Assembly: GCA_965205015.1 (NCBI GenBank)
Contig: OZ242029.1
Location: 1 to 64,000, forward strand
Origin: Candidatus Poribacteria bacterium
GTDB taxonomy: Bacteria; Poribacteria; WGA-4E; WGA-3G
DNA length: 64,000 nucleotides
Direction: 5' to 3'
Below the pieces are notes generated by a model, which had not been told where the DNA came from, did no database searches, and saw only the letters and a list, made by a program, of their open reading frames with translations. Positions 2,905-20,612 of this stretch are shown here, one piece after another. Both the position numbers and the translations under genes were made by a program. The first letter of the stretch is position 1. Each line of letters opens with the position of its first letter.

Positions 2905-3705
2905 CTACAACAAGGATGCCAGATAACTTCTCGCCTTACGCATGGAATCAACCGGATCCGATTCGCCTTCATAGACCACCGAGAGGCATCCATTATAGTT
3001 AACCCCGCGCAGAATATTTAAAACGCGAGGATAATCCAACCATTCCTCCACGCCGCTATCAATCTGATAAAACTTCGTACGGACATAAATGGCATGAGGT
3101 GCGGTCTGTTCAATACTTGCATAACAGTCATAGCCGGGATGCGGAGAACCTCGATGTCCACTCGCGCCGGGGGATCCTGCATACTGTCCAGTGTCTAAGA
3201 TATGTGTGAAATAGGGATGATCCGTTTCATTCAGCGCCCGTAAAACAGCGGCACCATCGCGTGTAACGTTGTTGTGGTTGTGATTCTGTAAACCGACGAG
3301 GATTCCTGATTCATAACCGTATTCAGCAACCTCCGTGAAGGCTTCAATCATCGGTGGCCACAAAGTCTCTTCATCATCGCAATCTTCAGGAACATAAGCG
3401 GCAAAGACTCGGACCAGCGGGCAACTCATAAAAGCGGCAACGTCAATCCATTGCTTGATGAGCGCAATTTGTTCCGAATGTTCAGCAACAGGACGCCCAA
3501 AGTTATTGCTAACCCCAATATAACCTAACGGTAATCCTTTCCGCGCAAGATCTTTCTTCAGGTCCCGTAGATAGTTTGCATCAGTGGATTCAAACGCGCT
3601 TGAATGTAACTCAATAACATCAAAACCGAGATCATACACGATCTGTGCGAAAGCAGAAGCAGTCGTATTTCTCACATTCAGAGACATCGTCCCTAATTTT
3701 ATCAT
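2905..3705 (-). CDS. Sugar phosphate isomerase/epimerase family TIM-barrel protein
   Basis: GFDVIEL, LQNHNH, LDTGQY, SVVYEG; AAGGAG RBS before ATG 3705. Confidence 0.85.
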   Translation of the reverse strand: MIKLGTMSLNVRNTTASAFAQIVYDLGFDVIELHSSAFESTDANYLRDLKKDLARKGLPLGYIGVSNNFGRPVAEHSEQIALIKQWIDVAAFMSCPLVRVFAAYVPEDCDDEETLWPPMIEAFTEVAEYGYESGILVGLQNHNHNNVTRDGAAVLRALNETDHPYFTHILDTGQYAGSPGASGHRGSPHPGYDCYASIEQTAPHAIYVRTKFYQIDSGVEEWLDYPRVLNILRGVNYNGCLSVVYEGESDPVDSMRKARSYLASLL

Positions 3706-17025: not shown

Positions 17026-18498
17026 TTAATCCGAACTTCGTGAAGAATTGAGATTCACCTCACAGATAAGATCACCCTGTAAGCGGAATGGGATATGTAC
17101 CCCTGTCTGCGTGAGATAAAGTGCCTCCGGGGTCATGGTATCTACAGTGCCTCGCAAAACGACGGACGAACCGATCGAGCGTTCCGCAATGACATCCGCC
17201 AACTTCTCCCGGAGTTTGGTGAGCTGATCCTCCAATGGAAAGACGAGTTTCTCTTCAACCGTTGCTCGGAGGTCGGGAAAAAACCCTTTTCCTACGGTTT
17301 GTGCAATATCCAAGAGTAGACTTTGTGTCGTTAGTGTATAGTCAAATTCAGCAACAGAAACAGACATCGTTGTCGCGTTATATACAGGCGTCCCGAGCAG
17401 ATAGAGTTGCCCCTCCGCACCGAATGAGGGCATACTGAATTCAATTCCCGCGGCGAGCTGGGTACCACTACCGTAGAGCGTTAAATTTTTTACGAGTGTA
17501 TCAATTCCCTTGAGTTTGCGCAGTTTTTCAACTCGGGGCTTCGCAAAACTTTCAATCCCGGCGTAGGTTATCTCAATCGGTGCCATGATGTGGTAGCCGG
17601 ATTCAAGGTGATCCACGAAGTGGATATCTGGCAAGTCGGTGATTGTATGCTCGGAAGAATCCGTTAATACACCTCCCATATTCGCTTGAATATAGGCTTC
17701 TATACCGAAGCTAAACGAGAGCGTTTTCCCATCACTCGACAACCGTTGCGCGAAGATTTTTAGAGGCTCTATGGTAAGCGCGATGGGCCGCTTCCGATTG
17801 AAGGTTATCGGTTCGTGGAGTCTTGCCCATAAACCGGCGACGCGTGTCTTTACATCTATGTTGGTGATGTACTTGATGATACGGTCCTCTAATTTGGGGA
17901 GGACAGTCTCCCGTACTAATTCGGTAAGAATCCGACGCACCGAAATTGTAATGCCCAAAATCTTAATTTCGGCTTTCTGGATGGAAATATCGGAGGTCGT
18001 TTTGGCAGTAATACGCCAATCCGAGTTAAGGGTCGGGGTAAGGGTTAGCGAGGCAGTCGCGGTGCCTTCAATATCTTCACGTTTTTGGATTACCTGTCCC
18101 AAGACTTTTTTCGAGACGCGCGCCCACCCATTGAACCGGAACGGAATGTTTACCGATATAGTCCCATCTGCCGCGCCTGTCATCATGAGAGGGTCAAGAT
18201 CCAGTTTGATCGCGGCTGTAAGTGCGCCGTCTTTTCGTTGGATAGGTTTACTGAGATAGTCTCTGAGTGTGGATTCCGCTAACGTCTTGACATCCTGTAT
18301 CGGCAGATTTGCCTTCACAGCAATGACTGAGGAGGTCGGAGGCGGCAAGGGAATAGGGGTAACTTCTCGTGGCGGTGCGGGTGCTTCGATGGTGAGATCG
18401 GAGTCGCGCGGCATGGGGAAGAACAACATAACGCAGATTAACACAACGCCAACGGAAACCACGCCCACAATGAGTTGTATTCGCATCTGCTTTGTCAT
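17026..18498 (-). CDS. DUF4403-like membrane-anchored protein
   Basis: N-terminal TM plus Pro-rich linker, beta-rich body, GQLYLLGTPVY. Confidence 0.65.
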   Translation of the reverse strand: MTKQMRIQLIVGVVSVGVVLICVMLFFPMPRDSDLTIEAPAPPREVTPIPLPPPTSSVIAVKANLPIQDVKTLAESTLRDYLSKPIQRKDGALTAAIKLDLDPLMMTGAADGTISVNIPFRFNGWARVSKKVLGQVIQKREDIEGTATASLTLTPTLNSDWRITAKTTSDISIQKAEIKILGITISVRRILTELVRETVLPKLEDRIIKYITNIDVKTRVAGLWARLHEPITFNRKRPIALTIEPLKIFAQRLSSDGKTLSFSFGIEAYIQANMGGVLTDSSEHTITDLPDIHFVDHLESGYHIMAPIEITYAGIESFAKPRVEKLRKLKGIDTLVKNLTLYGSGTQLAAGIEFSMPSFGAEGQLYLLGTPVYNATTMSVSVAEFDYTLTTQSLLLDIAQTVGKGFFPDLRATVEEKLVFPLEDQLTKLREKLADVIAERSIGSSVVLRGTVDTMTPEALYLTQTGVHIPFRLQGDLICEVNLNSSRSSD

Positions 18499-18589
18499 CC
18501 AATTTTACGGTTTGGAAACCCAAGTCTTTAGACTTGGGAGGAAAAACCGTCCTCGTGTGTGAGGCCAAGGCGTTTTTTGAAAAAAACAC

Positions 18590-18618
18590 TTGACAGTCTA
18601 AGTAATTTGTGGTTTAAT
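18590..18618 (+). promoter_or_regulatory. sigma70-like promoter inside the element driving tnpB
   Basis: TTGACA-17-TTTAAT with TG extension. Confidence 0.65.
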
Positions 18619-18715
18619 ATATATTACCAGTTGGCAGACATGACAAGCGTAATCGCAAGGTTACGTGTCTGCCCACCCACTTGTCAGGGGTTAAAGACTG
18701 GTAGCTGGTAACACT

Positions 18716-19258
18716 GTGAGAACCTACAAATATCAGATACGCGAGCATCGACACTATAAACGTTTGTGCAACATGCTTGATGAACTTGGCGATGTCCATA
18801 ACCACTTCCTTGCTCTGGAGAAGCGGTATTACCGTATCTATGGGAAATACGCCGGTCGTTTTCGCCTGCAACCGCATCTGACGAAGTTGCTCCAACGCAC
18901 CCATAAACACTGGGCATGGATACCTCGCGATACGCTTGATGCGGTGATTATCCGTATCCATATCGGTTATGAACGCTTCTTTGATTGGATCAAAAAAGGC
19001 AGACGTGGCAGACGTGTCGGTCCCCCGAAGTTTAAACTGAGGTTCAAGTGTTTCAAACATAAGCGTGAGTTTGTTCAAGTCGGACGCTGGACAACTACAA
19101 CGAAACCGTGTTCGGATTGTGGCTACAAAAACGAAAATCTTTCACTCTCTGATAGGCAGTGGAGGTGTTCTGAGTGTGGTTTACACCACGATAGGGACGT
19201 AAACGCTGCGATAAACATCTTGAGGGCTGCCTTGGGTCCCTCTGTGGAGCAGATGTAA
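18716..19258 (+). pseudogene. tnpB: TnpB with in-frame internal deletion (180 aa)
   Basis: N-terminal RTYKY/helical region to PKFK joined directly to TTKPCSDCG...CSECG..HDRDVNAAINI; RuvC-I and RuvC-II motifs absent. Confidence 0.85.
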
Positions 19259-19281
19259 GTCCTTCCTTAGAAGGCGAACTG

Positions 19282-20493
19282 CTACGAAGCACAAGCCCAA
19301 CCCTTTAGGTTTGGGTACCTTGACGATCGCAACCTTGGAATACCGCTTGAGATTTTATGTTCTCGGTCAATACGAAACGGATGAATGTCAAAATCGGTCT
19401 TACCGTTCTGGACGAGTTCGCTCAGAATACGTCCGACGAGGGCACAAAACTTGAAGCCGTGCCCTGAAAAACCTGCCGCAATCAGCAGATCCGGACAGTG
19501 CGGGTGCGCGTCAATGATAAAGTCTTCGTCTGGTGTTTCAGTATAGAGACAGACTTCGGTATGCGTGGTTTTTCCGAGTTCTGGGAGGCGTTCTTGGACG
19601 TAAGCATCTATATGGGCACTATAATCTGCGTCAGGCGTGCGTTCGGGTATATCAGGGGAGATGACCTGTCCTCTCCCGTGCCGGGCAATTTTTAACCCAC
19701 CCCCTTTATCATAAGAACCAAAAGCCGGAACGGCATAGATAAATTCCCCATCAGGGGTCACTTCCGTAAAGACTGGAAACCGGTCTGGTTGGAAACGTTT
19801 GCTGTCTGTCGGCTGATAGTAGCAGACCTGTTGTTTTGTAACCGTGAGCGGGAGATTCAGTTCCGCGAGTAGGGTGCCAGCCCATGCCCCTGCTGTCACG
19901 ATGACTTTCCTACCATGAAATTGACTATTTTCAGTCCGAACAGTCGGGACATCTGTCTGCCAATCCACATTGGTTACCCGGGTCTTTTCCCGGAGTGTCG
20001 CCCCGTGTTGCTCTGCCAACCGCAAGTGGGTGGAGACACACTCGGAGGCATGGAGAAAACCCGTGTCCTTCTGATAGAGGATCTCCATATCATCCGTCAA
20101 TCGGAATTGTGGAAAACGTTCCGCTAACTGTGCCGCATCCCACCACTCGGATTCAACGCCTGCAGCATCTAAACTTTGCCGTGTTGCGCGTCCATACGGG
20201 TTTCCCTTCGCGCCGATACCTACACTCCCCGTGATAAACAGCAGCGGTTTCCCCGATACCGCTTCGAGGTCGCGCCATTCGGCGTAGGCGGTTTTCATCA
20301 ATTCGGTGTAGAAGGGTTTATCGTAGAAGAATCGGATAATCCGGGTTTCACCGTGCGAACTGCCGAACGTGTGTCCACGCTGAAATTGTTCTAAGACAAG
20401 CACTTCTGCACCAGATTTAGCGAGATGGTATGCGGTCGCGCTCCCCATACCACCAGCACCGATAACGATTGCATCATAGATATGATCGTTCAT
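19282..20493 (-). CDS. solA: N-methyl-L-tryptophan oxidase / monomeric sarcosine oxidase
   Basis: GAGGMG, GSSHGETRIIR, CLYTETPDEDFIID, GFSGHGFKF; last ~14 codons come from the IS right end. Confidence 0.9.
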   Translation of the reverse strand: MNDHIYDAIVIGAGGMGSATAYHLAKSGAEVLVLEQFQRGHTFGSSHGETRIIRFFYDKPFYTELMKTAYAEWRDLEAVSGKPLLFITGSVGIGAKGNPYGRATRQSLDAAGVESEWWDAAQLAERFPQFRLTDDMEILYQKDTGFLHASECVSTHLRLAEQHGATLREKTRVTNVDWQTDVPTVRTENSQFHGRKVIVTAGAWAGTLLAELNLPLTVTKQQVCYYQPTDSKRFQPDRFPVFTEVTPDGEFIYAVPAFGSYDKGGGLKIARHGRGQVISPDIPERTPDADYSAHIDAYVQERLPELGKTTHTEVCLYTETPDEDFIIDAHPHCPDLLIAAGFSGHGFKFCALVGRILSELVQNGKTDFDIHPFRIDREHKISSGIPRLRSSRYPNLKGWACAS

Positions 20494-20501
20494 TTTTTTA
20501 T

Positions 20502-20612
20502 TGGCTGTCGGAAACTGTCGGCTGTCGGCTTGCCTCACAGTGAGAGTTACAAGAGGGTTTGATTAAACGAAAACCTCTTAACTGATAACCGATAACTGAC
20601 AACCGAAAACTA
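20502..20612. repeat. Heptamer-armed palindromic intergenic repeat
   Basis: Left arm (GCTGTCG)n-like, right arm ACTGATA ACCGATA ACTGACA ACCGAAA, inner hairpin AAGAGG..CCTCTT. Confidence 0.75.

Follow-up and report, generated by a model that had tools for sequence, protein, structure and literature searches.

A tnpB-only insertion sequence of Poribacteria carries, between the predicted promoter and the start codon of tnpB, an RNA leader whose pseudoknotted fold has been maintained by compensatory base changes in related copies. The 5' arm that closes the fold has two alternative partners, both supported by covariation. The place of the leader between the promoter and the start codon is fixed, and only elements that carry tnpB alone have it. 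It represents a new RNA family of a functional kind already known, a transposon leader that probably controls expression of the element's protein, of unusual bistable, pseudoknotted design. We interpret it as a cis-acting, bistable gate on tnpB translation that also protects the 5' end of the mRNA; we favor this interpretation with modest confidence, and the effect on translation is inferred.

Cas12 descends from TnpB, a compact genome-editing nuclease. Close study has been given to the guide RNA of TnpB, but our searches turned up nothing on control of its synthesis from the 5' end. Our literature search found no paper on TnpB in Poribacteria and, within the titles and opening lines of abstracts that it covered (most subscription journals lay outside its coverage), no tnpB 5' leader. 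Scans against Rfam at E values up to 10 returned only chance snoRNA and miRNA matches elsewhere and none at the motif, and no known riboswitch class gave an Rfam 15 match. We take the IS605-orfB motifs to be in the library scanned because they are named in the Rfam 15 paper. The original prediction of an undescribed structured RNA carried by an insertion sequence family is therefore supported by homologues, Rfam, and the literature, where "undescribed" means not found in these searches.

Fold and covariation of the tnpB leader

The leader was identified in a 64,000-nucleotide stretch of a Candidatus Poribacteria contig (OZ242029.1; here, the window). Three helices had been predicted between 18633 and 18686, and P1, P2, and P3 are present there exactly as described. 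The full fold is larger, spanning 18625 to 18710 (Table 1): the three pairings are real, but the original prediction had missed P0, the duplicated 3' arm of P0, and P4, the features that point to translational control. The segment CACCCA had been read as a linker; its ACCC instead pairs with GGGU to form P4. P2 (7 bp) crosses P1 and is a bulge-to-hairpin-loop pairing that joins the bulge between P1 and P3 to the loop of P4, and the leader as a whole consists of two three-way junctions, P0/P1/P4 and P1/P2/P3. The nested part alone has a folding energy of -34 kcal/mol (z = -2.33), and the 41-nt core is unique in the window and absent from all of 100 shuffles. A 50-codon reading frame (18559 to 18711) runs across the motif; a leader peptide was rejected because the 1- to 3-nt insertions and deletions in P1 and the free variation of P2 fit pairing, not coding.

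Table 1. Positions in the window of the leader, the insertion sequence that carries it, and the flanking genes
Feature	Position	Strand	Remarks
DUF4403 gene	17026-18498	-	Flanks the insertion
Whole insertion sequence	18499-19324	+	826 bp; IS200/IS605 type, tnpB only; inserted after TCAT
Left-end subterminal hairpin	18519-18538	+	8-bp stem, TTTA loop; read from sequence
Predicted sigma-70-type promoter	18590-18618	+	TTGACA (18590-18595), 17-nt spacer, TG-n-TTTAAT ending at 18618
P0 5' arm	18625-18631	+	At predicted first transcribed bases; pairs with 18697-18703
P1 5' strand	18633-18640	+	8 bp with 18666-18673
P2 5' strand (pseudoknot)	18641-18647	+	7-nt bulge between P1 and P3; pairs with 18680-18686
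P3 hairpin	18648-18665	+	7 bp (18648-18654/18659-18665), one U-G wobble; GCAA tetraloop
P1 3' strand	18666-18673	+	Partner of 18633-18640
P4 hairpin	18675-18691	+	ACCC (18675-18678)/GGGU (18688-18691); 9-nt loop contains P2 3' strand (18680-18686)
Unpaired joiner UAAAG	18692-18696	+	Two A's invariant, neighbors nearly invariant
P0 3' arm, copy 1	18697-18703	+	Pairs with 18625-18631
P0 3' arm, copy 2	18704-18710	+	Alternative partner of 5' arm (P0'); 5 nt upstream of start codon
tnpB remnant	18716-19258	+	180 aa, GTG start; Pfam Cas12f1-like TNB domain
3' guide RNA (omega-RNA) scaffold and right end	~19125-19324	+	Element terminates ...CCTTGAC
FAD-dependent oxidoreductase gene	19282-20538	-	Flanks the insertion
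Right-end hairpin	19296-19315	+	Stem/CTTTA-loop design matching the left-end hairpin

To assess conservation, we used two alignments. A protein-guided scan returned more than 545 relatives, every one in a record titled Candidatus or uncultured Poribacteria. Of the 77 loci retained, 51 contained the leader according to nhmmer, as did the window itself. With one leader (L039, which has a long insertion) excluded, the remaining 51 were aligned independently with MAFFT. Standard pairs filled 95.9% of the 1,679 pair cells, and 26 of the 33 pairs showed compensatory changes on both sides. None of 500 shuffles matched the real value on any of four measures, and partners slid out of register paired in only 24 to 44% of cells. 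A covariance model (R1) was then built on P0, P1, P3, and P4 only, with P2 excluded. R1 gave 64 matches in 78 sources, all on the tnpB strand and adjoining a tnpB match; in this alignment 95.9% of cells were paired and 29 of 33 pairs were compensatory, again against 0 of 500 shuffles. The copies are related and the shuffle counts overstate significance, so the argument for conservation is carried by the slid controls and by the many pair types.

Support extends to every helix. P0 was paired in 92% of cells, with compensatory change in 7 of 7 pairs, and P1 in 95 to 100% across the helix's three blocks. P2 was paired in 94 to 97% of cells, and its four central pairs each occurred as 4 or 5 pair types, although this helix was absent from R1. 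P3 was paired in 99.7 to 99.8% of cells (7 of 7 pairs compensatory); it is 7 bp long in all 64 leaders, and P1 follows with no spare nucleotide. P4 was paired in 95% of cells, including U-G wobbles and swaps of A-U to U-A. About 20 unpaired or sequence-fixed positions are conserved as well. G-U cells exceed A-C cells (93 versus 19), which indicates that the structured strand is the sense strand. The GNRA cap ascribed to P3 holds for the window, where the loop is GCAA, but is not conserved, as only 28 of the 64 leaders have a GNRA-type loop and GCTT, TCTT, and others occur elsewhere.

Two irregularities were seen among the leaders. The apex of P3 tolerates an insertion of 28 to 30 nt in 4 of the 64; the insertions at this site (L015, L028, L039, and L046) are G+C-rich, replace the tetraloop, come from different genomes, and could form an extra hairpin. 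In six leaders (L022, L023, L025, L046, L049, and L068), the 5' strand of P1 is of one type (GGCAGACA) and the 3' strand of another (…TGTCGGTTTCC), leaving P1 partly mismatched; these may be recombinants between copies or decaying copies.

At six loci, tnpB is preceded by a leader of different sequence and the same architecture, which we refer to as subfamily 2. A covariance model for it (R2) gave 29 matches in five genomes, representing 21 distinct sequences, in which 95.8% of cells were paired and 28 of 34 pairs were compensatory. P4 is CCG/CGG in this subfamily, and CAG/CTG in one copy. R2 scored 21 subfamily 1 leaders at 27 to 41 bits, and R1 scored the subfamily 2 leader of L054 at 32.6 bits. 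Since each model finds the leaders of the other subfamily, at lower scores, we consider the two to be one family. The three pairings first predicted are thus kept among homologous leaders of both subfamilies, with abundant compensatory change.

Promoter and distribution of the leader

In relatives, a TTGACA-17-TATAAT or TATACT promoter occupies the same place as the promoter predicted in the window and always ends 6 nt upstream of P0; that of L037 scored 12 out of 12. Transcription starting at the first base of P0 is a prediction from this conserved promoter, not a measurement. The promoter of the window, which has a weaker -10 box, escaped a simple scan, and this counts against the gate; the same scan flagged no terminator between the left-end hairpin and the promoter. 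RNA libraries do not resolve the point, as this evidence consists of small-share runs kept as contigs, which carry no information on starts, ends, cleavage, or strand. Contigs also cover DNA upstream of the predicted transcription start, and differences in depth between bins cannot be interpreted, since the conserved parts collect matches from paralogous copies.

The leader is present in 68 of the 77 genome loci (63 found by R1 and 5 by R2 alone). Three of the others (L058, L059, and L061) are cut before the TnpB N terminus, and two (L065 and L069) are broken genes without a leader match. In L007 and L010 (~2960 to 3003), the ATG of tnpB comes only 6 nt after the -10 box; tnpB is intact and the left-end hairpin is kept, and the leader is absent. 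This arrangement implies that their tnpB mRNA would be leaderless or nearly so, and it indicates that the leader is dispensable for keeping tnpB. An RNase P-like RNA suspected upstream of these two genes was ruled out, as the sequence is the element's ordinary left end.

In L073 (1724 to 3252) and L075, a gene for the Y1 transposase, tnpA (PF01797, 2e-38; 139 aa), lies directly upstream of tnpB. The tnpA stop codon overlaps the tnpB start codon (ATGA), and tnpA has a plain, short leader with no fold. These are autonomous relatives and a likely source of the transposase that moves the many tnpB-only copies. Because they lack the fold, we assign the leader to the tnpB-only derivatives, which are called IS1341 type, a name that also occurs in the title of PMC4615843.

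The leader-bearing insertion sequence is abundant in sponge-associated Poribacteria. At least 79 of 150 sampled genomes of the phylum have a match, with scoring limited to 27 per genome, and three genomes have 31, 32, and 53 R1 matches. In metagenomes (80 loci, with TnpB relatives at 28 to 86% identity), the leader was found only in the relatives at 86% and 56%, and inspection by eye of the regions upstream of 18 more distant relatives (28 to 47% identical) revealed nothing leader-like. The leader is a covariation-proven RNA fold that occurs only in TnpB-only elements, with dozens of copies per genome. This suggests that the loss of tnpA was accompanied by the gain of a module dedicated to both expressing the nuclease and holding it in check.

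Alternative closing helices and models of function

The 5' arm of P0 has a second partner. Copy 2 of the 3' arm abuts copy 1 in 62 of 64 leaders, and its pairing with the 5' arm is also kept (89% of cells paired, 7 of 7 pairs compensatory). At arm positions 2 to 7, copy 2 still pairs in 35 of the 37 cells where the two copies differ, which argues for selection on this pairing itself, not mere identity of a repeat. Arm position 1 is usually unpaired with copy 2, and P0' is accordingly mostly 6 bp. Forced-fold energies, in which the pseudoknot P2 is ignored, gave a median of 1.05 kcal/mol in favor of P0; 47 of 62 leaders favored P0 and 15 favored P0'.

Copy 2 lies close to the start of tnpB. The start codon is 4 to 7 nt downstream of copy 2 in all 62 subfamily 1 leaders and exactly 5 nt downstream in 46. 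None of these 62 has a motif resembling a Shine-Dalgarno (SD) sequence, so there is no SD sequence to hide and "occlusion" in this subfamily rests only on a helix 4 to 7 nt from the start codon. In subfamily 2, the two copies of the P0 arm are 7 to 9 nt apart, and a GGAG-like motif was seen by eye between them in several rows. There, copy 2 forms at least 7 bp covering ATG or GTG in 14 of the 21 distinct leaders; the remaining 7 are low-scoring or truncated copies. As a separate observation on the coding sequence, an A-rich tract immediately downstream of the leader gives many subfamily 1 tnpB copies an N-terminal extension rich in Lys and Arg (such as MKKRKRKQKR...), and the window copy and others begin directly with M-R-T-Y-K-Y, without the extension.

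We envisage the gate as follows. The first ~86 nt of the tnpB mRNA would fold into a compact, pseudoknotted domain whose 5' arm, the first 7 nt of the transcript, could pair with either of two tandem complementary segments. In P0 (copy 1), the domain would be closed and the start region single-stranded, leaving initiation open. In P0' (copy 2), a helix would stand 4 to 7 nt upstream of the start codon or, in subfamily 2, cover it, and initiation would be closed. A base-paired 5' terminus slows 5'-end-dependent decay, and burial of the 5' end in a helix would protect the mRNA. The balance might be shifted by the folding state of the pseudoknot core, by bound TnpB, or by the ribosome. In this scheme the start of transcription at P0, two states that differ in translation, and the existence of something that shifts the balance are inferences.

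Several observations favor an RNA that acts in cis on tnpB expression over a DNA site used in transposition: the leader is in fixed phase with the promoter and start codon, its pairs are asymmetric between strands, tnpA-bearing elements lack it, and the element has separate and complete TnpA hairpins and omega-RNA. A bistable gate fits a 5' arm that lies at the transcript start and has two selected, nearly isoenergetic partners, the second near or on the start codon. Other points count against the gate. A plain repressor hairpin needs neither two junctions nor a pseudoknot, and this complexity may reflect some further function or a partner yet to be identified. In addition, subfamily 1 lacks an SD sequence, L007 and L010 keep tnpB without the leader, the window copy may be a relic, and the energy comparison leaves out P2.

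The nearest functional analogue of the leader, judged by analogy only, is the left end of IS200. There, a stem-loop in the 5' untranslated region (UTR) hides the SD sequence of tnpA and limits its translation (PMC4513863), and the tnpA 5' UTR is also reported to be processed into a small RNA (PMC5435999 and PMC12594629). IS200 belongs to the same superfamily and, like the Poribacteria element, has a structured left-end segment between the (predicted) transcription start and the start codon. The IS200 structure is one long hairpin that hides a strong tnpA SD sequence, together with an antisense RNA, whereas the leader precedes tnpB, combines a pseudoknot with two three-way junctions, can be closed by either of two helices, and in subfamily 1 has no SD sequence. 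We found no relation between the two in Rfam or in sequence. Further parallels are hok-type toxin mRNAs and the rpsO and alpha-operon leaders, in which a 5' segment has two partners or a pseudoknot at the start codon traps or blocks the ribosome. The leader shares no sequence or fold with these, and their effectors (processing and ribosomal proteins) are known, whereas that of the leader is not.

A core this elaborate and this conserved in sequence suggests that the leader has a partner, for which TnpB is the obvious candidate. In a specific form of the gate that names this effector, TnpB, alone or with its guide RNA, would bind the core, shift P0 to P0', and repress its own translation. Ribosomal proteins S4 and S15 and T4 gp32 follow the same autoregulatory logic, each binding a pseudoknot in its own mRNA. 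Occlusion would require a much simpler fold, and the ~20 conserved unpaired or sequence-fixed positions, like the presence of the leader only where tnpB has its own promoter, would suit an operator of this kind. TnpB also binds RNA, and a pseudoknot is present in its natural ligand (PMC10097598). Comparison of the leader with the omega-RNA and the rest of the element, however, revealed no similarity or complementarity beyond shuffled controls, the consensus fold of the omega-RNA bears no obvious likeness to the leader, and there are no binding data; we regard autoregulation by TnpB as unlikely. These comparisons also led us to reject the leader as a mimic or antisense partner of the omega-RNA. 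The omega-RNA of the same element likewise has covarying helices and is presumably bound by TnpB, but its place is the 3' end, where it runs across the tnpB stop codon and the right end as far as the transposon boundary, the point at which the guide starts; the leader lies at the 5' end and has no adjacent guide.

A bolder and still tentative possibility, to which we give somewhat more room, is that the leader is a true sensor, with a core that is aptamer-like for TnpB, the TnpB-guide complex, or a small molecule and whose occupancy moves the arm from copy 1 to copy 2 and turns translation off, or, alternatively, that it is a new class of self-cleaving ribozyme. If the sensor is real, it would be the first known feedback switch in the mRNA of a transposon-encoded RNA-guided nuclease. 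The leader accommodates two junctions, a pseudoknot, and a closing helix that shifts register in ~86 nt, a size suited to structural work, and it is a possible portable translation switch.

It is doubtful that the leader is instead cut from the mRNA to persist as a stable small RNA that regulates targets of the host or the transposon in trans. A precedent is reported for the 5' end of the IS200 tnpA transcript (PMC5435999 and PMC12594629), the leader is a compact, closed, and stable domain, and its conserved single-stranded UAAAG joiner could serve as a seed. Yet a 5' arm that covaries with two 3' segments and a fixed spacing of 4 to 7 nt from the start codon are cis features that would be superfluous in trans, and the sequences of P0 and P2 differ between copies inside one genome. 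The contigs from RNA libraries do not distinguish a separate RNA.

Self-cleavage in the 5' UTR by a ribozyme of a new class, taken on its own, seems very unlikely. HDV-like ribozymes have the nested double-pseudoknot strand order P1-P2-P3-P3'-P1'-(P4)-P2', and the leader, whose P1, P2, and P3 are supported by covariation, shares the order P1-P2-P3-P3'-P1'-P2'; its stems vary freely while its junction nucleotides are fixed, as could be expected of a catalytic core. As had been suspected at the outset, the likeness ends with the strand order. In HDV, P3 is ~3 bp and L3 forms P1.1 with J1/4, whereas the leader has a 7-bp P3 with a variable tetraloop and no possible P1.1. A G-U pair closes P1 at the HDV cleavage site and the 5' leader is unpaired; here P1 begins with G-C in 61 of 64 leaders, and the upstream 7 nt are taken up by P0. 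Also unlike HDV, the upstream arm closes the domain and P4 encloses a strand of P2. No Rfam ribozyme model, including those of the HDV/CPEB3 type, matched at E values up to 10, and by the defining features of that family, as far as they can be read from sequence, the leader is not an HDV-like ribozyme. More generally, the junctions of zero nucleotides leave no obvious scissile linker, and cleavage would render the selected second copy of the P0 arm pointless.

That the structure acts as single-stranded DNA in transposition, as a left-end element recognized by TnpA, is barely tenable. IS200/IS605 transposition works through folded single-stranded ends, and the structured strand is the sense strand, the same strand as both end hairpins; against this, TnpA-type hairpins are separately present, and similar, at both ends of the element, whereas the leader has no right-end counterpart (no R1 or R2 match at any right end, or at any other place in the 77 loci, every match adjoining a tnpB match on its strand), autonomous tnpA-tnpB relatives lack it, L007 and L010 keep the left-end hairpin without it, and phasing to a promoter and start codon would be meaningless for DNA. 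A kissing interaction between UAAAG and the CUUUA loops of the end hairpins was also considered and rejected, since by eye the variants of the two do not covary.

The insertion sequence and its target site

The ends of the insertion sequence are fixed by an empty site. Contigs of three runs, all from one study, join 18498 directly to 19325 without ambiguity, which defines the 826-bp element. Similarity between copies begins and stops at the same two end points, the left start lying just past a conserved TCAT. The left-end hairpin is kept in the left ends of relatives, with a covarying stem; it is the counterpart of the right-end hairpin and the presumed site of TnpA recognition in single-stranded DNA. 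The paired hairpins match the pattern expected for TnpA-recognized IS200/IS605 ends. Downstream of tnpB, ~63 nt past the stop codon are conserved among copies up to a sharp end at ...CCTTGAC (19324), and the omega-RNA region shows covariation in its consensus fold; a right end and omega-RNA of this kind are typical of TnpB elements.

The window tnpB is an in-frame deletion derivative, as its relatives encode proteins of 367 to 400 aa with OrfB_IS605 and TNB domains. Set against relatives of 385 to 388 aa, it lacks ~205 internal codons, corresponding to about residues 107 to 315 of a 385-aa relative and spanning the OrfB_IS605 match, and retains the N terminus, the zinc ribbon, and the C-terminal DRDVNAA motif. 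The length of these relatives rules out a conserved family of mini-TnpB proteins. The deletion has spared the leader and the two ends of the element, but this copy may be a relic.

The element lies where the stop and start codons of the two flanking genes overlap by 4 bases (minus strand, ATGA; plus strand, TCAT), at 18494 to 18498 and 19325 to 19330. Joining 18498 to 19325 restores ...TC ATG A, with the frame worked out by hand, and the insertion thus splits a translationally coupled oxidoreductase/DUF4403 pair. The last 14 codons of the oxidoreductase open reading frame are now encoded by the right end of the element. TTCAT or TCAT precedes many other copies (L002, L006, L014, L016, L027, and others), often within a T-rich "TTTTCATC," and these sequences suggest a TCAT-type target or transposon-adjacent motif that would often coincide with start codons of genes on the opposite strand.
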